A program made the position numbers and the translations under genes. Under the pieces are notes generated by a model, which searched no databases, had not been told where the DNA came from, and worked only from the letters and a program-made list of their open reading frames with translations. Positions 2,375 through 49,772 of a stretch of DNA of 64,000 bases are shown one piece after another. The DNA lies in NCBI GenBank assembly GCA_951406725.2, contig OX597826.1:27714001-27778000 (forward strand). Reading direction: 5' to 3'. Positions within the stretch are counted from its first letter, which is position 1. Every line of letters starts with the position of its first letter. Origin of the DNA: Octopus vulgaris (lineage: Eukaryota).

Positions 2375-3274
2375 TCTTTTACTCTTTACTCTTTTACATG
2401 TTTCAGTCATTTGACTGTGGCCATGCTGGAGCACCGCCTTTAGTCGAGCAAATCGACTCTTTGGAAGCCTAGTACTTATTCTATCGGTCTCTTTTGCCGA
2501 ACCGCTAAGTTACGGGGACTGTAATATATATATATTACAAAATATAAAGTTATATCTTGAGATCGTTAGTGACAACAACGCTCAAAATATATAACAGACT
2601 GGAACAGTAGTGCTCAAATGAGCTGTATACACTTTTTAATCCGAGGGGAGGCAATGCGAGCAGCAACTACAAAAGCACTACACAACCCACAGAAAGATCA
2701 AACACATACGTATATTCATATATTCATTTATATCTACTGAACAGACATAAAGCCCGGCGTTTAGAAATATATAGTAATATATAAATATATAAACATCATA
2801 TAAAAATATATTGTACGCATAAGATCCATTCGACGTTCCATAAGAAATTTAGAAATAAAAATTGCAATAAAAGTTAGTGGTAATAAGAACAATTGAATTA
2901 AATATAGTAAATATAGTAAGTAGTAATTAAATATTTTTTATTTTATTAAAATGGTAATTAAATCGTTATATAACAATTAAAAGAAAAAATAGCAATTAGT
3001 TTAAAATGTATCAAGGACTTGAACTCGAATATGTGGCTTTGCATGAATGGGAGAAATTAAAAGATTAAAAATTTAATTGAGTGCAGAAGTGAATTAGTCC
3101 AGATGGACATGTGCTCATACCATTTACTATAGCTGCTAGATTGAATTATATGCTTATAAAGTAGCATTCAGTATCTAGGAGAATTTTTAGGAGTACGTAA
3201 TGTCTGGTCTTTCGCATGTAGCAGGTATGTAATTGTGCATTTGTTTCCGTGTACTATGTGTTGTGTGTAAAAAA

Positions 3275-3365
3275 CATCCTGACGAGGGGAGTGTCAATTT
3301 TAAATATATGATATGTTTCATATTAATTGGTGCATCTCCGAAACTTTTAGGCATTTTTGTAGATG
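3275..3365 (+). ncRNA. Type I hammerhead ribozyme fold
   Basis: CATC-CTGACGA-[GGGGAGTGTCAATT...AATTGGTGCATCTCC]-GAAA-C..G-TA-GATG. Stem I is CATC/GATG, stem II is long, stem III is minimal, and GUA cleavage is predicted after 3361. Confidence 0.7.
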
Positions 3366-3479
3366 AACTTTTAGGCATTTTTGTAAATTTGTATATTTAT
3401 CTTCTATGTATTTTTCTCTGGAATTTTAATTCGTCTTTTTAATATGTCATTGTATGTTTTATTACCACAAAACTTGTTT

Positions 3480-3883
3480 ATAGCAGTGCTTGGAAGTAAA
3501 GTGTGTACAGTGTGGTCGTCTCTAAAAAGAAGATCGGGTTTCAGCTTCGCAGGATATCTTTGATTGTGTCGGAGAATACGAAGCCTTTATGAAAACGTAC
3601 ATAACAGGTGACGAATTGTGGGTCTATGTCTATGGCCCCGAAACCGAGGGTCACTTTTCGCTGTGAAAGAGTTAAACAAGGTTTCAAAATACCACGGGAA
3701 TCCAAGAGAGTATGACGAAACAATTTCTCGTTATCTCAAGAACAGAGTTCCAGGAATGCTTCCATCAATGGAAATGAAGCTGGAGAACGGATCTACTTCA
3801 AAGTAGGATTAAATGCTGAATTGATGTGTGTTGTAGTTGTCTTTTGATACCACCAGTCCCAATATCTTTTGAATCAGACCTCG
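3480..3883 (+). pseudogene. Mariner remnant
   Basis: ITGDELWVY-like segment at about 3601. Ends in the TIR-like CTTTTGAATCAGACCTCG|TA. Confidence 0.55.
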
Positions 3884-4274
3884 TACGCGTGCGCGCTTGC
3901 GTGTTTGTGTGTGTGTGTGTGTGCGTGTTTCTGTGTGTGTGTGACATTTACATATAGACATCTATGCGCAAATATATATCTTCCTATATTTTTTCACTCA
4001 GTTTAATTTCCACAAACGGTTGACAGAGTATTCCTGGAGGGAATTTAACAAGATTTTGATATTTATTAACTGGGAACATGAGAGAAATATATTCGAAAAC
4101 CCAGTCTTCGGCGACAACAAAACTACTAATAATGACTGAAACTGAATACTAAAGGAATAAAAAAAATCTCATTAGCTTTGATATTGGTTTTTAATTAATA
4201 AAAGTAAAGAAGAGACAAATTAATCAGTTGAATATTGTATTCTTTTACGTATTTTTTATCTTGTTTTAATGCTA

Positions 4275-4300
4275 TGATAATAACAACAATAATAATAGTC

Positions 4301-4344
<44 letters not shown>

Positions 4345-4443
4345 TATTATTATTATTATTATTATTACTACTACTACTACTACTACTACTATTATTATTA
4401 TTATAGTTATCGTTGTTATAATTATTATTATTATTATTATTAA

Positions 4444-4474
<31 letters not shown>

Positions 4475-4985
4475 GCTACTATTATTATTGTCGTTGTCGT
4501 TGTTGTTGCTGTTGCTATTTTCATATTTGCAATTTGAGACTCATTTAGGCTTCAAGAGCGTCATATGGTGGTTCCATTCTGGCATGAGTTGGAAGATGAA
4601 CGGCAACGACGACAACGACTATGATGATAATGAACGTAAGGATCTTCATGATGATGATCATAAAAATAATGACGAAGTCGATGACGAAGACGATGATGAC
4701 GACGACGCCGATGATGATGATGATTACGAAGATGACCAATAACCTGATGGGGAAGAGAATAATGATGATTATGATGACAATGTTGTGATGATGATGATGA
4801 CGATGATGATGACGATGATGACGAGGACGACGATGATTGTGACAATGACGATTGAGGCAATAATGATAGTTATGATGATTATTCGGATGATGGTGATGGT
4901 TATGTTGATGATGACGACGATGCTGACGGTGATGATGTACGTGACGATAACGTTGATGAAGATGATGATGACGAGGATGTCGATA
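4275..4985. repeat. Compound (AAT)/(ATT)/(ACT)/(GAT) trinucleotide region
   Basis: Direct reading. Representative of many similar di-, tri- and tetranucleotide tracts across the window. Confidence 0.9.
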
Positions 4986-5639
4986 ACCATACGGATATAA
5001 AAGACAAGGGAAAGACACGATAGGAAAGGCGGTGAGTTTGCAGAGTCGTTAGTATGCTTAGCCGCATTTTTTCCGGGTCTTTAAAATCTGATTTCAAATT
5101 CCGCCAAGCTTGACTTAACGTTTCATCATTCAGGATCGACAAAATAAGCCCCAATCCAGCACCGGTGATGGTATAAACTAGTAGCTCCTTTCCAAACGGT
5201 GTTATAATACGCAGAGTGAAACTGTTCTGCACAGATTAACCTTGAACTCGGTCGCGCATGCACAATACAATAAATTGTAACATTCTCGCTCACTTCCATT
5301 GGTCATAGCAGTGCCTGGAGGTAAAGCATGTAGAGTCTGGTTGTATCAAAAAGATCGAGTTTCAAAAGCACAGGATCTCCTCGACTGTGACAGAGTAGAC
5401 AAAACCTTTTTTACTTCCTCCTAGCACTGTACCTGTAGCAGCGTTTATTGCCAGGTTTTCTAACTAATCTGGTATGTGGGCAACTGTCTTCGAATACTCA
5501 TAGTGTCGTTCAATGCTCGAAAGGAGGAGTAGATACACACCTGTTTTCCATTTGTTTCTCTCATTGTTTGAGCATTGTACTAATTTGTTTCGTATGTTGT
5601 TTACTGTTGGTGATGTCCTGTACCCATATATGTATATAT

Positions 5640-11261: not shown

Positions 11262-11870
11262 TCTTTTCTACTCTAGGCACAAGGCCCGAAATTTTGTGGG
11301 GAGAGAGACAGTCGATTAGATTGATCTCAGTATGCAACTGGTACTTAATTTATCAAACCCGAAAGGATGAAAGTCGATCTCGGCGTAACTTGAACTCAGA
11401 ACGTAAAGACAGACGAAATACCGCTAAGCATTTCGCCGGGCATGCTAACTTTTCTTATTTCCTTATTGCTTACAAGGGGCTACACACTTAGGGGACAAAC
11501 AAGAACAGACAAACGGATTAAGTCGATTACATCGACCCCAGTGCGTAACTGGTACTTAATTTATCGACCCCGAATGAATGAAAAGCAAAATCGACCTCGT
11601 CGGAATTTGAACTCCCAACGTAGCGGCAGACGAAATACCTATTTCTTTACTACCCACAAGGGGCTAAACACAGAGAGGACAAATAAGGACATACAAACAG
11701 ATTAAGTCGATTACATCAACCCCAATGCGTAAGTGGTACTTAATTTATCGACCCCGAATGGACGAAAAGCAAAGTCGACCTCGTCGGAATTTTAACTCAG
11801 AACGTAGCAGCAGTCGAAATGCCGCTAAACATTTCCCCCGCCGTGCTAACGTTTCTGCCAGCTCGCCGCC
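11262..11870 (-). mobile_element. tRNA-derived SINE family A, multimeric copy
   Basis: Head GGCGGCGAGCTGGCAGAAACGTTAGCAC..GAGTT.AAATTCC (A/B-box-like). The body GTCGACTTTGC.TTTC.TCC.TTCGGGGTCGATAAATTAAGTACCA occurs three times. Confidence 0.85.
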
Positions 11871-14007: not shown

Positions 14008-14053
<46 letters not shown>

Positions 14054-14061
<8 letters not shown>

Positions 14062-17000
14062 TTAACAATTAACGATAACTTCTTAATAAGGAATCTTAAG
14101 AAGAAATTATCAGGTAGATAGCGTGAAAAACCTCATAAGAGAAAAATTTCGAAAATAATTCTTTCTTATTGAACATATTAATTTATATATAGAGGGCATT
14201 ATTATACATACATGCCACACGCTAAGAGGGACATTAGTCATTTCTACCAAAAATTTTACAAAAATAGAAATAGAAATAAAAGTTAAAAAATCTGATAAAA
14301 CCATGATAAAAGTGTAAAAGAATGTAAAGATAAGGGATGTATAGAGGTTACGGACCAAGCATGGTGGTCAGGAGATTGATAAAATTTAGTTGTAGAATTG
14401 TCAGTAAATCAACAGTAAATCAACAGTTTCATCTGGGGACTTAATGCGTTGTAAATCAGAGCTGATGAGCATTTAATCTGGTTCCTTGAATTAAATGGAC
14501 TTCTAGTACATACGTATCATCATGGATACATACACCCACATACACGCGTACATATACGCCTCCAAGTATATAAGCATACATACGCACTCGCGCGTAAACC
14601 CGTACATAAACACACACGCACCCACACGCACGCGCGTACACACACATACATACACCAGAATATCCGCATATATACACGGGCATTACGCGCGTACACGCTC
14701 ACATGTATATACGCGCGCCCATCACTACATACACACACGTATATGCCCACGCCTCTAGGTCCAGGTATAAGATATTAAAGGATGTGTATAAGAACGTAAG
14801 TAAAGAATCCCGTACTCATGTCAATACGCGCACGCACACGCGGCTGTGTGTCCGTATGTGCGTGCACATATACACTCACATACACACACAGAGAGACACA
14901 CGCGCACATGGGTATAGCTATAAGATATCGAAGTATGCATGTACATATATGCGCGTGCATATGTATGTATGCGTATACACACGTACGCGGACGCTCGTAT
15001 ATTCAAAAGATGGATCCATAGGTAAGTAAATAAACATATATAGAGGTGTAAAGCGATAAGTTTGGGGTAAGAATGAGGGTAAGGGTAAAGATTAGAAATA
15101 AAAAATACAGTATAAAATAAGAAATACAATGTAATAGTTAGAAATGAAGTATAAGAATTATAAAAATTATAAGAGTTAAGGTAAGGGATGAAAATGAAAA
15201 TGAGAATAAATGGAAGTAGAATAAAAGTAAAAATAAAATTAAAAATAAAAATAAATGGAAGTAGGATAAAAGTAAAAATAAAAAGTAAAAATAAAAATAA
15301 AATAAAATAAGATAAAAATATAATTTTGTAAAGTTTAACATGAGATGGAGGTGGTTGAAAGTTAGAGGTGTGTGTTAAACGTAGGGGCGGGCGGGGGGAA
15401 CTGAAAATTGGAAGGGTGGGAAGTGGAGTTTGGCGGTGTGCGTTCAACATCTGAGTTAGAAATGTGAAAGGGTATAGATATAGGGAATTAAAGAGACTAC
15501 ATAGGGAGGATATGGGTGTAGGAGAAGAAATATTTAGGGAAAAGAAGTCATATATGGGAGACAAAATTTGTATATATAGGGGGAAAATGCAGGGAACCGT
15601 ATATGCACATACACACACCCACACACACACACACACACACGCACATGTGTATATATATGTATATGTACACATACGTACACGTATGTGCACATACATACGC
15701 ACACACACACACACACACACATACACACGCACATATAGGAAAGCGGGATGTGCTGGAGCCGACAGGTTGCACCGGGTGGGAGGAAATTGCATGGGGGAGT
15801 TGGTATAAGACCTAAGCATTGTAGTATTTGAAAGTATTAATAAGTTTATGTATACAGGATGGTTTGAACTCTGACCTTTTGTTAATAAGATTGTGTTTGT
15901 CTTTGAATTTCAAGATGTTCAGGAGTTCTACACAGCATAGTTGGCATCCTGCTCTATTATTTAAATAAGGTGCAGCTGATCCGATGATGGACCATCTGAG
16001 TTTGAAGCCTATGCATTTGTCTTTTAATTCCCAAATTCTTTTAGAGAGGGAGGTGCTGTTAGCCTTATGTCTGTGTCTCAGCGAGGACCGGTGGTTGTAG
16101 TATCTGGATTTCCAGGAGGTTGAGCAACCAATATAGGTGAGTGTGTTAAACTGAGTACTCACCTCACATGAGTATATTACGTTTTTCGCTCTACATGCGC
16201 CCTGCAGCGGGCACTCTGATGCACATCTGCAGTTGCATTGCATTGCATTATTCGGTCGTGTGCTGCTAATCCCAGGCGGAGGTGTTGCAATACGAGTGGG
16301 GGCGTTGGTATCCTCCTGGTTGTTGATGGGTGTAGTATTTCCTCTGTTGTGTTGGCGGGTGTTATTACTAACTGTTTGGGTAGTATGGCTGTCAGTCTGG
16401 TTATATTGTCTACTGTCTAGATGAGGGGGGTTCTGTTGGTCGCTATGGTTTGCTCTTGATCTAGCTGTTCTAATATTAATATAGTTATGTTTAGCTATGA
16501 GGCAGCTCATGTTGGGCAGGGTAGAGTAGGAAATCCTAATAGTTTTGTTGGAGAAGATACTTCTATACTTGTGGGTGGGTGGGAAGTTGTTGGAAATTAT
16601 AGAGAATATTCTCTTACATAATTTACCCCTAACTGCTAAGTTGAAAGGTATGTTGAACCATATATATTTGCGTAATCTACTATTATCCCTTCTATTTCTC
16701 CTAATAGGATCTATATTGTTCTCGTCGGGAGGGTTACTAATGTGTGCTGTTCTATTAGTTCGCCTATTTCCTATACGTTGTTTGGAGTTTAAATTAGAAT
16801 TATCGCTAGTGTGAGTTGAGTGCTGAGTTCGATTATAATTGGGAGTCTTATGGCCGACGGACGTTCCCGGGTGGTCTACATATGATATTCTCTGGTTATA
16901 CCCGGCACTATAGAGAGCCTGGTTGTAGTGTTGTGCATGATTATTGAAAATTTCTCTATTAGAGGATAGTTTTGTCAGTCTGTCTGAGATGGCTTGGACC

Positions 17001-18590
17001 GTGGTGCTAATTATACAGGGTGGATGGTTGGAAGAGGTATGGATGTATTTGGTAGTTTCTTCTGGTTTCCTATACGGGTAGTGAAGGTGCTTATTCAAAT
17101 CTAACGTAACATCTAAGAAGTTTACTATTTTAGTGTTGGTCATAAATTCTAGTTTAAGATTGAAGGATTTGAAAAAAACCCTGATCTTTTTCCTAATTCT
17201 TTCTAGTTTACTCCTATTGTTGCTGGGGTATATGAAGAGAGCGTCGTCTCTGTATAGACCCCCCTGAAGATCCGGTACCTCGGAGAAAAGCTTCTTGAGC
17301 AGGTAGGCCCCGACCAAGTCAGTCACCTGAGCTGAATCGCTCGAGCCCATAGCCACATCGAAATTGTCGGGGGTATCGGATCTGGTCCAGAGTCTACCGT
17401 CGAATTCTATTATGGTTTTTCTAGCTAATAGAATTATGTCAATTTTTTCTCTGTCTATGAGTGAAAGGTTGCGGGCGAAAATAAGGGATTTGTTAAGTAA
17501 GATGGGGGATATACTGGCGTAGTAGCTAGCTATGTCGAATTGGATGAATGAGTAGTCGGGCCTATTGGTGATAGTGTTAAACCATTCTAGCACATCGTTG
17601 GTGTTAATCCATAGTTGGAGTGGGATGTGGGGTTTGATGTGTGGGATCACCTTGTCCAGGATGGTCTTGCTAAGTCTGCCGATATCCGATTTAGTCGGAC
17701 AGATTAATCGTACTCCTACACTATCTGGGAAGTCTTTCTTATGGTCTTTAATAGTAATTTTGGGTACTTGTGGTTTAATAGGTTCTGTTCTGTCCAGGAG
17801 GTCTAATTTGCTCATAACTTCCTTGATTTTGTAGTTAATTTCCTTAAGGTTATCCGTAGAAGTAGTTTTATACTTTTTGCTAAGTTCCCTCATGATGAGC
17901 GATTTGTAGGTTTGGTAGTCTAGCCTATACCAGTTCCCAGTCTTGTCGGCGGGTATGATAAGACTATCATCGTTCCTAAGTGAATGCAGGAAATCTTTAA
18001 GGCTCCTTAAGTGGGTGTTGGAAATGGTCTTATGTTTACTAATGTTGATGTTGGTAATGAGGTCGATTAAGTCTTTTTCAAAATTTTCCAGTGCGTAGTT
18101 AGAGGGTGGATTTCTTCTGCTTTTAAATATCTTCCTGTGTGATATTTCTTCTTGGTTAGAGTTGGGGTTGCTTTTCTCCGGGTTATCGAACTGGTAGGCC
18201 GCCCACCTGATTCTTCTAATAAAGTCTGTGGTACGGTGGATGAGAGTCGTCGTGTAAGTTTTGTCGGAGTGGAGAGGTATGTCCTTGGGGGAGAAGTTTG
18301 TGTGAATCCTTTGAATCTTCATGCTTGGGTTCGTCAAGTACTAAAGGTTGTCGCGGTTACGTGGGATCAGATCCTAGTGACAACGTAGGTGAGTTGAGTA
18401 TAGAAATTCGGGGTGAGTACTTGATAATTATAAGCACCTGTGTATACCGTTTGGTGGTATAGGTGGTGGAGTAAATTGATCAAAATAAAATAAAAACGTG
18501 ATGCGAAGGATTCAGCGGTACATATGTTTCGGGCCTTTATTAGACAGATTTATAACAATGCATAATGTATGTCTGTGGCCATATGCATAT
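14054..18590 (-). mobile_element. Full-length or near full-length Penelope-like retroelement with long 3' UTR
   Basis: The PLE ORF plus about 1.75 kb of downstream sequence and about 250 bp upstream lie between two (TA)n-rich tracts ending near 14053 and starting near 18590. Boundaries are inferred. Confidence 0.7.
15812..18337 (-). CDS. Penelope-like element polyprotein: reverse transcriptase plus C-terminal GIY-YIG endonuclease (intact ORF; first ATG at 18322)
   Basis: 841-aa uninterrupted ORF. It has the PLE N-terminal ADKTGN motif, RT motifs FDIASYY, AMGSSDSA and GLYRDD, the thumb segment FLDVTLDL..YRKP..YIHTSSNHP, and a GIY-YIG domain (CNCR..CPLQGAC..NVIYSC..YIGCS..R..NH..CQLCCVE..LINKRSE..CIH). 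Confidence 0.95.
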   Translation of the reverse strand: MTNPSMKIQRIHTNFSPKDIPLHSDKTYTTTLIHRTTDFIRRIRWAAYQFDNPEKSNPNSNQEEISHRKIFKSRRNPPSNYALENFEKDLIDLITNINISKHKTISNTHLRSLKDFLHSLRNDDSLIIPADKTGNWYRLDYQTYKSLIMRELSKKYKTTSTDNLKEINYKIKEVMSKLDLLDRTEPIKPQVPKITIKDHKKDFPDSVGVRLICPTKSDIGRLSKTILDKVIPHIKPHIPLQLWINTNDVLEWFNTITNRPDYSFIQFDIASYYASISPILLNKSLIFARNLSLIDREKIDIILLARKTIIEFDGRLWTRSDTPDNFDVAMGSSDSAQVTDLVGAYLLKKLFSEVPDLQGGLYRDDALFIYPSNNRSKLERIRKKIRVFFKSFNLKLEFMTNTKIVNFLDVTLDLNKHLHYPYRKPEETTKYIHTSSNHPPCIISTTVQAISDRLTKLSSNREIFNNHAQHYNQALYSAGYNQRISYVDHPGTSVGHKTPNYNRTQHSTHTSDNSNLNSKQRIGNRRTNRTAHISNPPDENNIDPIRRNRRDNSRLRKYIWFNIPFNLAVRGKLCKRIFSIISNNFPPTHKYRSIFSNKTIRISYSTLPNMSCLIAKHNYINIRTARSRANHSDQQNPPHLDSRQYNQTDSHTTQTVSNNTRQHNRGNTTPINNQEDTNAPTRIATPPPGISSTRPNNAMQCNCRCASECPLQGACRAKNVIYSCEVSTQFNTLTYIGCSTSWKSRYYNHRSSLRHRHKANSTSLSKRIWELKDKCIGFKLRWSIIGSAAPYLNNRAGCQLCCVELLNILKFKDKHNLINKRSEFKPSCIHKLINTFKYYNA

Positions 18591-20529: not shown

Positions 20530-20564
<35 letters not shown>

Positions 20565-20585
20565 TTTAATTTATTATATAGAAGG

Positions 20586-20636
20586 AGCTTCTACAGGACT
20601 AGTACTGTTTCATTCAAGAGAAATCTTCAGGAAGCT
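20586..20636 (-). ncRNA. Type I hammerhead ribozyme fold (inverted copy of 24303-24353)
   Basis: Exact reverse complement of 24303-24353. Confidence 0.85.
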
Positions 20637-21041
20637 ATTTAACAAGAATTGTATTAGCATTTATACATTTAGAGGAGTGGTGGTGGGGGACTTTTTGGGG
20701 GTAGGCATAGCGCAAAATATCATACTTGGGGGAGTGGTCAAGGTAATAAAAAAATAAAAAAATAAAAAATAAAAAAATAAAGGATAAAATAAAAGAATAA
20801 AAATAAAAAATATAAAAAATATAAAAAATATAAAAAGTATAAAAAATATATATAAAAAAATATATATAAAAAAATATATATATAAAAAAATATATAAAAA
20901 AAATATATATATAAAATATATATATATATATATATAAAAAAAAGGGGGGATAGAGTTATAGGTAAATAAGGAGATTCTCACTTATACCTATACACACATG
21001 TATACGTATCTACACACACATACGCACATACACATATATCT

Positions 21042-21098
<57 letters not shown>

Positions 21099-21557
21099 CC
21101 TACACATACACACATACATACATACAAATATACATATACATATATATATATATACAATCCAATACAGGCCCATTCCCTAATTTTAATTTTATTATCTTCA
21201 TTTATTACTTTTGTTATCTTTGATCGCTAGGGCTAAGAATCCTGGCAATAGCTGCTTGTCCGTTTGTCTGTCTACTAGAAGGCAAGTACTCATTCCCGCA
21301 CGCACACTCATTAGCACGTACATTCACCCATTCGTACACTCATACACATACACGTACGCACGCGTTATATTCATACATACAAACATCTACATACGTTCAC
21401 GTATATACACATACGTACTCGTACCTACAGATTCGTGTCTACACTTTAGGAGGCTAGTCTATACATATACACCAATAAATATACATATATATATATATAT
21501 ATATACCCGCATATACATACACACACACACATATATACTCCTACATACAGATACATA

Positions 21558-21613
<56 letters not shown>

Positions 21614-22121
21614 CATATATACACATACCTACACATACACACATACACATACACACACATACATACACATATATATACATACACAAACATATATACACAC
21701 ACATATATATACATACACACATACACACATACATACGTATACATACATACATACATCTATACATCCATACTTACATGCATTTATACGCATACACACACCC
21801 ATCTATATATATGTATATATATATATATATATATATACACACTCACACATACATATACAAATCTACGCACACACATACATACATACACGTATACGCATAC
21901 ACGCACATACACATATACATGCGTACCCATACACGTGCACACACGCACGCGCATCCATATAAATACACACACACACATATATATATACACGTGTGCAAGC
22001 ATACATACATACTCATACGCGCACACATACTTACAAATACATATATGCACACACTTACACACATATATATACATACACATATACATGCATACATACATAT
22101 ATGCATACATACACACACGCA

Positions 22122-22181
<60 letters not shown>

Positions 22182-22803
22182 TATACATACATAGACATAC
22201 ATACACATACATACACATACACATACGTACACACACATATACACATATATATATATACATATATACATATATACACATACATGCATACATATATACACAT
22301 ATACATACATATACATACACACACACATACATATATACATATACACTGATACACATACCCATACATACACATGCATATACTTATATTACTACATACTCAC
22401 ATATATAGACATATATACATATACACACATACATATATACATGTACATACACATACGCATGCATATATATATATATATATACACACACATATATACACAT
22501 ACATATATATATATACATATATACGTACATACACACACACACATACATACATATACACATATACATGTATACATACGCAAAAATGATACGCATATATACA
22601 CATACACACACACAGACAGATGCATATACATACATATATATATATATAAACTACATATCTATATAAATACAAACATAATACACATATACACACACATATA
22701 TATACATTCATGCATACACATATACAAGTATACATACACAAACATACACACACACGCGCACACATACATATACACACACACATATACAAATACATACACA
22801 CAT

Positions 22804-22851
<48 letters not shown>

Positions 22852-23322
22852 GTACACATATACATATGTATATATATATCAACGTGCATATATATGTATT
22901 TGTAAGTATGTGTGCGCGTATGAGTATGTATGTATGCTTGCACACGTGTATATATATATGTGTGTGTGTGTATTTATATGGATGCGCGTGCGTGTGTGCA
23001 CGTGTATGGGTACGCATGTATATGTGTATGTGCGTGTATGCGTATACGTGTATGTATGTATGTGTGTGCGTAGATTTGTATATGTATGTGTGAGTGTGTA
23101 TATATATATATATATATATATACATATATATAGATGGGTGTGTGTATGCGTATAAATGCATGTAAGTATGGATGTATAGATGTATGTATGTATGTATACG
23201 TATGTATGTGTGTATGTGTGTATGTATATATATGTGTGTGTATATATGTTTGTGTATGTATATATATGTGTATGTATGTGTGTGTATGTGTATGTGTGTA
23301 TGTGTAGGTATGTGTATATATG

Positions 23323-23376
<54 letters not shown>

Positions 23377-23830
23377 TATGTATCTGTATGTAGGAGTATA
23401 TATGTGTGTGTGTGTATGTATATGCGGGTATATATATATATATATATATGTATATTTATTGGTGTATATGTATAGACTAGCCTCCTAAAGTGTAGACACG
23501 AATCTGTAGGTACGAGTACGTATGTGTATATACGTGAACGTATGTAGATGTTTGTATGTATGAATATAACGCGTGCGTACGTGTATGTGTATGAGTGTAC
23601 GAATGGGTGAATGTACGTGCTAATGAGTGTGCGTGCGGGAATGAGTACTTGCCTTCTAGTAGACAGACAAACGGACAAGCAGCTATTGCCAGGATTCTTA
23701 GCCCTAGCGATCAAAGATAACAAAAGTAATAAATGAAGATAATAAAATTAAAATTAGGGAATGGGCCTGTATTGGATTGTATATATATATATGTATATGT
23801 ATATTTGTATGTATGTATGTGTGTATGTGT

Positions 23831-23894
<64 letters not shown>

Positions 23895-24302
23895 AGATAT
23901 ATGTGTATGTGCGTATGTGTGTGTAGATACGTATACATGTGTGTATAGGTATAAGTGAGAATCTCCTTATTTACCTATAACTCTATCCCCCCTTTTTTTT
24001 ATATATATATTTTATATATATATTTTATATATATATTTTTTTTTATATATTTTTTTATATATATTTTTATATATATTTTTTTATATATATTTTTTATACT
24101 TTTTATATTTTTTATATTTTTTATATTTTTTATTTTTATTCTTTTTATTTTATCCTTTTATTTTTTTATTTTTTAATTTTTTTATTTTTTTATTACCTTG
24201 ACCACTCCCCCAAGTATGATATTTTGCGCTATGCCTACCCCCAAAAAGTCCCCCACCACCACTCCTCTAAATGTATAAATGCTAATACAATTCTTGTTAA
24301 AT

Positions 24303-24353
24303 AGCTTCCTGAAGATTTCTCTTGAATGAAACAGTACTAGTCCTGTAGAAGCT
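24303..24353 (+). ncRNA. Type I hammerhead ribozyme fold
   Basis: AGCTTC-CTGAAGA-[T TTC TCTT GAA T]-GAAA-CAG TACTAGTC CTG-TA-GAAGCT. Stem I is a perfect 6 bp (AGCTTC/GAAGCT), stem III is ACAG/CTGT, and the predicted GUA cleavage is after 24347. Confidence 0.85.
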
Positions 24354-24434
24354 CCTTCTATATAATAAATTAATTTTACTCTGCTATGTATTGAGTACCT
24401 TACTTACTGTGGTTAACCCCGTATCAACCCGGGA

Positions 24435-24501
<67 letters not shown>

Positions 24502-34805: not shown

Positions 34806-35870
34806 TGCTGGCAGAATCGTTAGCACGCTGGGTGAAATACTTAAGAGTATTTCGTCCGTCGTTACGTTGTGAGTTCGAATTCCTCCGAGGTCGACTTTGC
34901 CTTTTATCTATTTGGGATCAATATAATGAGTACTAATAGGATGCTGGGGTCGATACAGTCGGCTACCGCACTCCCCCAAATTTCAAGCTTGGTGCCTATA
35001 ATTTAAATGATTCTTGTTAAAATTTTTACACGGTGAACTGGTAGGGCTGTTAGCACGCTGGTCAAATTAATGTTTAGTGTCTTCTCTTCTCTTCCGCATC
35101 TTTCCGTTCTGAGTTGAAATGTGGCCGAATTCAGCTTCGCAATTCGTATCTCGGGGTCGACAGAACAAGCGTTGTTTAAGCATTTAGAGTCTATGTAAGC
35201 CACAAGCCCCATTCGCTTAAATTTGTTAGATTTTCCAGAATTTGAACTCATTATTACTATTATCATGAAGGCGGCGAACTGGCAGAATCATTTGCACACC
35301 GGGCGAAATGTTTAGCGGTATTTCGTCTGCCGTTACGTTCTCAGTTCAACTTCAGCCGAGGTCGACTTTGCCTTTTATCCTTTCGGGGTCAATTAAAATA
35401 AGTACCAGTTATGCACTGGGGTTGATATAATCGCCTTCATACGTTTGTCTGTCTTTGTTTGTCCTCTCTGTGGATATTAAAGAAATAGGTATTTCGTGTC
35501 CAAATACTGCCGAGGTCGTCTTTGCTTTTCATCCTTTTAGGGACGATGAAATAAGTATCAGTTACACACTAGGGTCGATATAAGCAACTAGCCCCCTTCT
35601 GGAAAGATTTTCAAGGACTCGTACCTTTAGTAGAAATGATTATTCTATTATCATCGATAATAATGGAAATAATGGTAAGGTGGGGGAGCAAAAGCTGCCG
35701 TCTGGCAGAATCGTTAACACTCCGGACAAACTGCTTAACGGCATTCCTTCCTGCTTTACGTCTGGGTTCAAATTCCATGTGAGTTGAAACAAGGGTCAGT
35801 TCAGCTCTGGTTTCGATGTAATGGAGTAGTCCTTCCCCGCGAAATCATCGGCCATGGGCTTATCTTAGAA
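34806..35870 (+). mobile_element. Cluster of four SINE family A copies (about 34806, 35030, 35270 dimeric, 35700)
   Basis: Repeated CTGGCAGAATCGTTAGCAC heads and GGGGTCGAT bodies, all on the same strand. Confidence 0.8.
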
Positions 35871-44481: not shown

Positions 44482-45515
44482 ATATATGTATGTATGTATA
44501 AATATGCACATATATATGTACACAAATGCATACACACACGTACACACACACTCATATATACATATATAAGTGTGTGTGTGTGTGCGCGCGTATATACGTA
44601 TACATACACACATATACATACGAATCTCTATTTTTATACATCTGTATGTATAAACAGATGTGTGTGTATGTACGCATGTATATATGTATGTATTTTTGTA
44701 TATACATATACATATATACATATATATAAACATATATATACATAGACACACACACACATATATATATATGTGCACATTTAGTCCTTGCTAATTCCTTTAG
44801 ACGTTTCTGTTATAGGGACACCGTCAATCAAAGAATTAGACTGAAAAAATCTATCAGGACTACATCGAAAATAATAACAACAACAAGGAAAACACCAGTC
44901 AATGCTTTGTCAACAAAATTCCGTTTCCATAGCTTCCATTTCCGTTTCATCGTCAACAATAATCTCCGAAAGTGTGGAAAATACTGGGAGTAACCTCTGC
45001 CGCCCTGAGTTAGGATATGACGAAGTAAGCTATAAACATATTTGTTTATTACTGATATAGAAGAGGATGACGGTGGCAATGATGATGACGATGATGGTCA
45101 CGATGAAGGTGACGACGATGATCGTGATGATGGTGATGATGATGACGACGACGATCACGACGGCCATGACGATGATCATAATGAGGAGGACGATGCTGGT
45201 GTTGATGAGGAGAAGGATGAAGACGACGACGACGACGACGACGTTGATGATGATGTGATAATCATCTTGATGGTGACAATGCTGATGAAGATGCTGAACT
45301 CTTCGTTGAGATGTTCTTGTGTTGCATTGGACAAGTGAAGGGCCACGTCGCTGGATCTTCCCAAAGTCTTCCTGAGATTTTAATTATTATTCGGTCATGT
45401 TTAAGACTGTTTAGAATGTGGTCTTCATTTAATTCTCTGCATATTGAATAAGGATCTTTTTAGAGCTTCTTTTGACTGACTGTGAATTCCATTTCGTTCA
45501 GATCGGGAGCTGATT

Positions 45516-45747
45516 CTTATTTTTTTACTGCCCACAAGGGGCTACACACAGAGGGGATAAATAAGGACAGACAAACAGATTAAGTCGATTATATCGACCC
45601 CAGTGCGTAACTGGTACTTAATTTATCGACCCCGAAAGGATGAAAGACAAAGTCGACCTCGGCGGAATTTGAACTCAGAACGTAACGGCAGACGAAATAC
45701 GGCCACGCATTTCGCCCGGCGTGCTAACGTTTCTGCCAGCTCGCCGC
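45516..45747 (-). mobile_element. SINE family A
   Basis: Well-preserved copy of the same head, body and tail. Confidence 0.9.
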
Positions 45748-47543
45748 TAATTCTACCACACAGTATATTCGACTACACAGGACATAGGTCATCCTTCATA
45801 AGATCTGGGTTTTTACCTCAGCGGAGAGCGTTATTTTTTCGCATGAGACGAAAACCGCCACCTTGTATTTTCCAGCCTTTTTGTTTTTTTCCGTTGGATC
45901 TCTTCATTTTCTTTTTAAAAGCAAATTTGCTTAAACCTCCAAGCATCTGGTCCCCATCCTCATAAGTGGAAGGAACGGTACTGCTATGAGAGGTGTCCTT
46001 CCAGTCATTAGACGAAAGCTGCTATAATTGTTGCTATGTGTAACCCCTTGCCTTCGTTGGATGAGGCGAAGAGGGCAGTCTTTGGGGTTTTGTGGTTCGC
46101 TCCTTTATTACGAGGACGAGTTAATTTCATTTCCCGACTCGAGGTATGTGAATTGTCTCCTTAAAACCGAAAACTTGCATAATTCTTTGTTCTTATTTAT
46201 GTTTTGGGGGTTTTCTATGCAGAAAACTTTTTAATAGTTTGAATGTACGCTCTGTTCCTTGGCTGCTGAGCTCTAAAATCTTTTTGTCAGCACCTGTATA
46301 GGAGAAGCTTCAGTGTTGTTTTATGATATTTCTAAATTGGATAGAAAGCCTGAAATGTTGGAAGGAGACATTAGTTGTTATCTTCGAACTCAATCCTTAA
46401 CACGTAGCATATTGTATGGACTAAGGAGGGATGAAAGACAAAGTTGGGCAAACTGGGAATCGAAATCAGGATGTCAAGAACTGGAAAAAAATAAAACAAC
46501 GCAAGACATTTTTTAATGACTTTCACACATTTCCAGTAATTTTGTAAATTCTAAAAATTGCCAAGAATAATGAAGAATGCAGGACATAAGGTAGTACCAC
46601 CACAACCACCACCACCACGATGACCACTACGACCAGCGCTGTCACCGCTGCTACCACCGTCACTACTACTACTACTACTACAACAACCACCATCACCACT
46701 ACCACTATCACCACCATAACCACCAATACTACTAACATTACTGCTGCTGCTGTTCTCCATTTAGTATTACCAAGGCTACTGTTGCGGTCATCGTTGTTCT
46801 GACAATCTGCAGCAACGCAAAACGATTGCAAGACCATTCGACCTCAACAGATACCAACATTAAGTCCAACGATGACCATCACCACTACAATAAACCCGCT
46901 ATCATCATTGAAACAGTTTCCAATACCGCATTGCCAACTCATTTACATCATCATGTTAACCATGGCCATCACTAAAAATATATACAAGAAAGCAGCAATC
47001 ATACCCTTACTAGCGCAACCATCTATACCATCGCCACCACTTCGTAATAACTAGTAAAACCGAAAATAACAGCATGAATACTACCACCGTCACCACTACC
47101 ATCACAACCACCCTGACTATCAGTACAACAGCCGATCGACGTCTCCAACACAACCATCGTCACCACCCACACCGCTGATCGTCCGAATTGCCATCAAGAC
47201 TACCTCAGCCATCACCACCGCAAACGCCACTACCACACTAACCGCAATATTCATACTACCAACACCAACACCACCACCTCCACCACGAAAACTACTACGC
47301 AGCTCGTAGCTCCCCCACACACACGCACCAAAGAAAACACCACCACTACAATGGCCAGCACCAAGCCGCCCGCTCAGCACCGCCGCCAACCCTCGTCAGC
47401 CCACTCCTAACAACCAGGCATTTCAACTTTAACATATCTCGTGTTTCGCAAGCGAATAGCGCCTGCCAAGATGAGTGTATATATATGTGTGTCTGACATA
47501 CATACATATATACATATATACATATATACACACACACAAACCC

Positions 47544-48590: not shown

Positions 48591-48870
48591 GTGTGTTTGT
48601 GTGTTTGTGTGCGCATGCTTATCTGTGTGTATATACGTGTATATTTAATCGTTTCATTTAGTTTCTTTCCTGAACTTCGTTAAAGAATCAAATATACAGA
48701 GTGAGGCTTGTGTCACTAAACATTTTGTGTCTCGCCTCTAAAACCTCTGGGCATCGCCCATGTATTTTCTCAATAGCATACCGCAAGCAACTGGCTTTTC
48801 TAAGTATCACCGCTAAAGCTTTCAACCACGAAAGCTGGTTTTCCTCTGTAAAATATGCTTGCGACTGAGA

Positions 48871-49258
48871 GCGGCGAGCTGGTAGAATCGTTAGCACGCC
48901 GGCCAAAACGCTAAGCGGTATTTCGTCTCCCGTTACATTCCGAGTTCAAATTCCGCCGAGGTCGACTTTGCCTTTCATCCTTTCGCACTGGTGTCGATAT
49001 AATCGACTTAATCCCTTTGTCTGTCCTTGTTTGTCCTCTCTGTGTTTAGCCCCTTGTGGGTAGTAAAGAAATAGGTATTTCGTCTGCCGCTACGTTCTGA
49101 GCTCAAATTCCGCCGAGGTTGACTTTGCCTTTCATCCTTTCGGGGTTCGCTTAAATAAGTACCAGTTACGCACTGGGGTCGATATAATCGACTTAATCCG
49201 CTTGTCTGTCCTTGTTTGTTTCCTCTATGCTTAGCCCCTCTGGGCAATAAGGAAATAA
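48871..49258 (+). mobile_element. SINE family A, dimeric copy
   Basis: Head at 48871; the body and tail repeat from about 49075. Confidence 0.9.
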
Positions 49259-49772
49259 ATGTGTGTTTGTGAGGGTGGACGTATAGGTTTTAGCTAGATT
49301 CGTCAATGGTAATCTGCAATATGGTGCTATACACGATTGCCTAAGATTAAAGAAGAAATATATGAAACATGTATTACTTTCCGCATATTCTTCCCTTCAC
49401 TTAACTTCAAATGCAAACATGCGATCCCGCCAAATATTATGGAGAAATTATTATCTACCTTGTACGAAATGTCAGCTAGGGGACTCGGCGTATTCTGATA
49501 TCGACTCTGGCAGAAAACTCAAAATATAACATACTGAGGCTTTCACATAGTAACGCAGTCAGAAGTGTGTGTGTGTGTGTGTTTGTGCGTGTGCGTGTGT
49601 GTGTGTGTGCGCGCTCGTGTGTGTGTGTGTGCGTGGGAGTGTGTGTGTCCGTTTATTATCTATGAATCAGTCAGACTGTCATTTTACCAACACATGCCCG
49701 TATGAACGCCTAAATATAGATATAAACGCGTGCACAATTATACAGATACATATGTGTGCATGCGAGCACACG

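Follow-up and report, generated by a model that had tools for sequence, protein, structure and literature searches.

A fold-back Penelope-like insertion of Octopus vulgaris, its Hydra-type parent family, and counts favouring priming from both target strands

Described Penelope-like systems and the present locus

EN+ Penelope-like elements (PLEs) are defined by partial tandem copies acting as pLTRs, an adjacent inverted 5'-truncated copy and a tail (PMC8557442, Fig. 2 legend), and the way in which Penelope elements form these inverted structures and tails is presented as an open question in the same work. Members of the Hydra clade (Craig et al. 2021, PMC8557442) are marked by the change of DKG to DKT, an RWK motif, a CxCX5C linker, the lack of CCHH, and CxxC and CxH motifs around conserved E and N residues. 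They are generally shorter than 3 kb, a length given as a general tendency; the complete families measure 2084-2729 bp and lie nearly all in (TA)n, and the Penelope-13_HM entry carries an inverted 5'-truncated copy (PMC8557442).

Experimental insight comes from Poseidon_Ac of the green anole: in the available part of Frangieh et al. 2024 (PMC11167929), both strands of an AT-rich target are cut and extended in vitro, reverse transcription starts at two internal sites bounding the tail, and mutating the ribozyme does not abolish insertion. For the Pen1_Av element of Adineta vaga, the accessible text of PMC3846280 describes a spacer of 0.9-1.5 kb that precedes the 3' pLTR and consists of captured host DNA that varies between copies. 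In Octopus vulgaris, a repeat annotation lists 31 recently active Penelope-like families, their clades being unnamed in the accessible part of that source (PMC13282606), and the family described below may therefore already be in a repeat library.

Here we describe a fold-back insertion from a window (the whole 64-kb stretch of DNA that was analysed, located on C13 of a 2.8-Gb host genome), together with the family from which it derives. With the Hydra clade (Hydra-1_Obim and Penelope-13_HM being the entries compared), this element has in common a putative C-terminal GIY-YIG-type domain, a 3'-proximal hammerhead, the RT, the DKT, CxCX5C, CxxC and CxH motifs, (TA)n targets and the inverted copy. 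It differs from the listed complete Hydra families by a unit of 5193 bp with a 2876-bp 3' region, from the motifs given for the clade by RWR instead of RWK, from PLEs generally by a tail of ~70 nt instead of 30-40 bp (PMC8557442), and from Hydra-1_Obim as a different family, judged by eye against the supplement text.

Poseidon_Ac, as presented in the available part of PMC11167929, shares with it an AT-rich target and two start sites bounding the tail, but belongs to another clade and has its start sites inside the ORF, whereas they lie here in the 5' leader; it also showed no strand preference in vitro, whereas the two ends of the present fold-backs are nearly always at different sites. The EN+ Penelope of Adineta vaga likewise displays a head-to-head inverted pLTR, a one-sided tail and junction palindromes, but its TSDs are visible, while the present element has (TA)n targets and a long 3' region common to the family (PMC3846280, accessible text).

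Geometry of the locus and its parent family

The insertion lies between the two halves of a target (TA)n microsatellite (20530-20561 on the left, 24440-24465 on the right). Two 5'-truncated copies meet head to head at a blunt junction (22883/22884), devoid of clear microhomology and of any insert: an inverted left arm (20566-22883, minus strand, 2318 bp) aligned with unit positions 2809-5127, and a direct right arm (22884-24439, plus strand, 1556 bp) aligned with unit positions 3630-5197 and ending at the tailed end. These lengths include the stretch 22051-22883, present in the left arm only: an apparent spacer between the arms as originally delimited, it is ordinary element sequence at other loci of the family and forms the upstream continuation of the left minus-strand copy. 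The paired parts of the arms (20566-22050 and 24373-22884) differ by a single substitution (21095/23837) and otherwise by 10 indels, which measure 1-4 nt and are confined to (TA)n or A/T runs, in agreement with the prediction that the arms differ mainly in (TA)n and A-run lengths. BLAST of the window against itself gave 98.66% identity over 1492 columns for this pair and no other comparable self-match in the 64 kb, which contain 0 N bases. The left arm ends outward at the short end directly past AATAAA, followed by ~4-5 additional A and then (TA)n; the outer ends of both arms are embedded in (TA)n, within which no TSD was discernible flanking the insertion. The tail (24371-24439, plus strand), which spans the interval between the short end (24370) and the tailed end (24439), is attached to the right arm only, its part beyond the paired arms being 24374-24439. 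Truncation has removed the ORF from this copy.

The window locus is one recent, truncated copy of a family with thousands of genomic copies. In a genome search, the 246-nt right end gave 40/40 scored matches at 99.6-100% identity. The internal block yielded 951 candidate matches. Genome-wide, exact short ends in (TA)n numbered 1305 and exact tailed ends 2447, against 0 for reversed-pattern controls; the tail, one-sided as predicted, is therefore not unique.

The parent unit (5193 bp) was defined from tandem copies and comprises, in order, 45 nt to the ATG, the ORF to 2186, the 2876-bp 3' region, the ribozyme and the tail. This 3' region is microsatellite-like, with 64% of its length in alternating purine-pyrimidine runs. 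Copies elsewhere continue upstream into a reverse transcriptase gene; the idea that 22883 is the natural 5' end of a 2.4-kb non-autonomous element was rejected, since other copies extend into the ORF. One parent copy (L082) has an intact 713-aa ORF with YRDD, DKT (VPSDKTKN), CxCX5C (CNCHDKTTC), CxxC (CDLC) and CxH (CMH), whereas frameshifts or truncations affect most of the remaining long copies in the sample. The search for further copies and an ORF-bearing parent, which the original prediction had proposed, thus returned both, and its reading of the locus, as a young insertion of PLE type that carries an inverted partial copy plus an optional tail, is borne out by the near-identity of the copies and by the Hydra-type parent.

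The protein model of the 713-aa product reached a pLDDT of 85, with RTs and TERT as top fold matches (E about 3e-7), and at least 1080 relatives were found at E <= 1e-20, mostly ~40% identical and ~700 aa long. Pfam returned only spurious sub-cutoff matches on the parent protein, and no GIY-YIG; PF01541 (GIY-YIG) matched 1/15 aligned proteins, at 1e-5, and the LVY...YIG region of the parent aligns with that protein. The RWR motif of the parent also occurs in 4/14 aligned relatives, the other 10 having RWK, and the CCHH motif is absent. Judging from its motifs (DKT, CxCX5C, CxxC and CxH, without CCHH) and its (TA)n target, the element of the window is assigned to the Hydra clade. An assignment to Neptune/Nematis was dropped, the linker being CxCX5C and not CX2-5CxxC and CCHH being missing. 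The tendency of Hydra elements to stay below 3 kb does not extend to this unit, which is about twice the listed length because of the ~2.9-kb 3' region, the excess being non-coding. The family as a whole displays the hallmarks of EN+ PLEs, i.e. pLTR tandems, an adjacent inverted 5'-truncated copy and a one-sided tail.

The window also contains a second Hydra-type Penelope element (~14050-18580; ORF 15815-18322, minus strand) with an intact 835-aa ORF, whose product is 34% identical to the 713-aa parent, a ~1.7-kb repeat-rich 3' region, and 9 other copies at 97-99% over the 5' 500 nt. Long 3' regions may perhaps be a trait of the Hydra families of this genome. In addition, many window copies of a SINE-like repeat with a ~185-nt period were detected at 80-89% (11455-11870, 35270-35470, 45515-45750, 48870-49260 and others), which we take to be an octopus SINE.

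Fixed ends, hammerhead motif and likeness of the arms

Insertions of the family stop directly past AATAAA (24370) or 70 nt further (24439), that is, 23 or 96 nt beyond the predicted ribozyme cut. In tandem and full-length copies the tail continues uninterrupted for 45 nt to the ATG (49 matches, 35 of those within two arrays), and it is therefore the element's own 5' leader. Contigs of three runs covered 28-30/30 bins of a full-length copy; as these runs are only presumed to be RNA and contigs show neither ends nor strand, they are not counted as evidence of expression. At positions 24385-24417 of the tail lies a short motif that recurs at the 3' end of the coral Hydra-2_Amil (PMC8557442 supplement), possibly a conserved RT recognition site; no other Hydra entry had it when the supplement text was searched for exact matches, a search that can miss motifs split by a line break.

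A CUGAAGA...GAAAC...GUA hammerhead core, with N18 between CUGAAGA and GAAAC, lies at 24309 (plus strand) and 20630 (minus strand), facing outward at each arm end as originally predicted. In the right arm, the predicted type I motif (24303-24353, plus strand) has a 6-bp stem I (24303-24308/24348-24353), a core at 24309-24315, a predicted cut after 24347, a 4-bp stem III with an 8-nt loop and a weak stem II; the left-arm motif (20586-20636, minus strand) is predicted by mirroring these coordinates. Rfam gave 0 matches at gathering score for the predicted hammerhead, and its 63-nt fold was no better than that of shuffled sequences (z -0.05), so that the call of a type I hammerhead in the pLTR rests on the core and on the pairing of stems I and III. 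Minimal hammerheads are known to work as dimers, with which the co-fold energies agree (-29.6 kcal/mol for two copies vs -8.6 for one). The original prediction held that read-through of the locus would give ~1.5 kb of dsRNA with ribozymes. Its geometry holds, but silencing of the ribozyme by the hairpin would be the likelier outcome, because in either read-through direction the antisense copy would be made first and pair with the sense copy.

A TATAAA box (24274-24279, plus strand; minus-strand mirror 20660-20665), the putative pLTR promoter, is located 29 nt upstream of 24303 and of the AGCT that borders ribozyme stem I on its 5' side, which suggests an RNA start at 24303. This putative start is also the turning point of the mini-palindromes of the family. 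Solo copies truncated exactly there and followed by (TA)n were rare (2 exact matches with the one pattern tried). In one contig of run X1, 24364 was followed directly by 24303, so that only the ribozyme is repeated there, head to tail.

Fold-backs of the family nearly always combine one end of each kind. On C1 (0-97.4 Mb), where pairs within 11 kb were sought among the ends that head the listing (61 short, 100 tailed), 38/38 outward end pairs joined a short and a tailed end, compared with 0.7 pairs expected by chance on C1 and 0 of 100000 label shuffles reaching 38/38. Another 85 C1 ends found no partner, in part since variant ends escape an exact pattern; near 68.81 Mb, a nested copy caused one pair to be mis-spanned. 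All 7 fold-backs among 11 loci chosen by the internal block were likewise short plus tailed (7/7), and the 39 loci selected by the tail comprised 34 with an inverted short-ended arm, 0 with an inverted tailed arm and 5 with no inverted arm, one of these at an assembly gap. Sixteen single-stretch loci selected by the RT gave 5 mixed fold-backs, 2 unclear cases and 2 short/short loci (L076, L082), which speak against the one-of-each rule.

In the L072/L073 tandem array, at G000:C1:68813017-68813215, the (TA)n in the 3' region of one copy harbours a short fold-back belonging to this family; the element itself therefore offers target sites within its 3' region.

The two arms of a locus also mostly resemble each other more than they resemble other copies. 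Over 1.4 kb, the own arm was the nearest match in 17/20 loci (median distance 19.75 vs 51), and over two shorter intervals in 16/24 and 17/25. Near-perfect pairs of at most 300 bp make up 22/38 of the C1 pairs, most of them ~205-bp palindromes turning at the AGCT that borders stem I on its 5' side, and genome-wide at least 198 exact mini-palindromes (L092-L101 among them) turn at the 5' edge of the ribozyme. At a two-state variant of the family, these 198 read A/A in 80 cases, T/T in 115 and mixed in 3, that is, 195/198 concordant, when ~96 mixed ones would be expected from arms drawn independently; such agreement would also result if the arms came from two RNAs made by a single source locus. 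The mini-palindromes may also have been re-copied as whole units.

Hairpins are a familiar sequencing artefact, and the contig cover of four runs, in which repeats were skipped, stops at 24432 and leaves the right flank uncovered. We nevertheless regard a long-read fold-back artefact or a misassembly at the window locus as very improbable: the arms differ at 11 places, in length and in their fixed ends, the same architecture occurs at dozens of loci, the short-end/(TA)n junction is present in contigs of 4/4 runs, and one contig of run X7 contains the AGCT turn.

Formation of the fold-backs and significance for Penelope insertion

In L1 twin priming, the second target strand primes the same RNA and the cDNAs are joined head to head, the inverted piece being an adjacent, non-overlapping segment. 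A similar priming logic could apply here, with the difference that both arms repeat one 3' sequence. The explanation that we favour, and consider fairly probable, is that both nicked target strands prime one RNA at two fixed internal sites ~70 nt apart and that the resulting cDNAs are joined head to head. It builds on direct observations, namely the family identity, the parent ORF, the two fixed 3' ends past the ribozyme, the one-of-each ends and the mutually nearest arms. The putative GIY-YIG domain would cut both strands of the (TA)n target, after which one strand would prime at the tail end and the other directly past AATAAA. Each cDNA would halt independently or at the RNA 5' end, and host end-joining would connect the two, ribozyme cleavage being unnecessary. 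Where both cDNAs run off the RNA start, they may anneal through the AGCT palindrome and generate the ~205-bp mini-palindromes. Such two-strand priming followed by end-joining would account for the one-of-each rule and for all three classes of arm length: among 33 loci, the tail-less arm was longer in 13 and the tailed arm in 10, and the arms were within 150 nt of each other in 10 (lengths from BLAST borders, excluding L032, L057, L067-L069, L076, L079, L082, L088 and the internal-block loci). Several junctions carry short templated duplications that look end-joining-like by eye, most junctions lying in simple repeats.

Shuffling predicts 2.6 near-equal pairs instead of the 10/33 observed, and this excess keeps alive an alternative that we judge rather unlikely, in which a tail-primed cDNA snaps back, by self-priming or template switching, and copies itself up to the short end, and a later deletion at the palindrome centre makes the arms unequal. 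Antisense-template self-priming was proposed for Penelope in the accessible text of PMC3846280. Such a fold-back would also explain that both arms of a locus stem from one template and that the mini-palindromes show varied centre deletions, and the templated junction inserts could equally originate from repair of a broken centre. However, it requires a second event in 13/33 loci, near-identical and young as these copies are. The window is one of them: its tail-less arm is 833 nt longer on the 5' side and is therefore no copy of the tailed cDNA without later deletion, and a cDNA without the tail could not have served as template for the tailed arm. Hence template switching, the origin initially predicted for this insertion, is not the best fit. 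Snap-back copying further leaves unexplained that the copied arm terminates at the very site used by solo direct copies, and a turn at AGCT with zero loop would be easier between two strands than within one. Against priming from both strands stand the excess of near-equal arms and the short near-perfect palindromes, both of which also fit snap-back copying, the window junction without microhomology, and the same use of start sites by the two strands in vitro (PMC11167929, available part). A literature search conducted mostly outside subscription journals found no paper stating a one-site-per-strand rule for Penelope.

Two further loci are fold-back arrays derived from the element by internal deletion, L090 (G000:C2:64628300-64632200) with ~14 ribozyme monomers of 277 nt and L091 (G000:C5:37481400-37489300) with ~23 of 333 nt. 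Their monomers are 99-100% identical to the parent pLTR plus ORF start, and each array has one short and one tailed end. They look like retrozymes apparently made in one insertion event, via a circle or repeated jumps, in keeping with the descent of animal retrozymes from PLEs that is proposed in the accessible part of bioRxiv 10.64898/2026.07.22.740005. Like the animal non-LTR retrozymes described in the available portion of that preprint (see also PMC7229834), they consist of tandem type I hammerhead monomers from a PLE pLTR; unlike these, they are single-locus deletion derivatives with near-identity to their parent, and the window locus itself is without tandem monomers.

The existence of these two fold-back arrays of near-identical monomers, together with insertion ends that all lie 23 or 96 nt past the predicted cut, would suit a ribozyme-processed circular RNA template, with start sites just past the circle junction and copying that goes round. 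We hold this to be improbable, since a circle has no end at 24303, yet at least 198 mini-palindromes turn there, and since jumps between terminal repeats on a linear RNA would give identical arrays; insertion by ribozyme mutants was moreover normal in vitro (PMC11167929, available part). A circular template may be relevant to the monomer arrays only.

Returning to priming from both strands, a more extended version is put forward tentatively, with slightly less than even confidence. One protein dimer on one RNA would allot the two RT start sites to the two strands, run-off cDNAs at the TATA-defined start would fuse into hundreds of 205-bp palindromes, re-copied deleted RNAs would give retrozyme arrays in a single event, and each arm would export as much as 2.9 kb of DNA resembling microsatellites into existing (TA)n repeats.

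Taken by itself, the window locus is a dead, truncated transposon copy of familiar shape. The architecture was known already; the novelty lies in the family with its long 3' region of microsatellite-like sequence, and in counts that speak for priming by two strands. Such copies are likely masked as simple repeats and missed in annotation. The 38/38 mixed ends and 195/198 concordant arms connect the two start sites found in vitro, as described in the available part of PMC11167929, to genomic insertions, and the thousands of ends left by so young a family provide data on the inverted structures and tails of Penelope elements. The intact 713-aa ORF makes the two-strand model testable and, if its extended version is true, the family would document the insertion cycle of Penelope elements across a whole genome.
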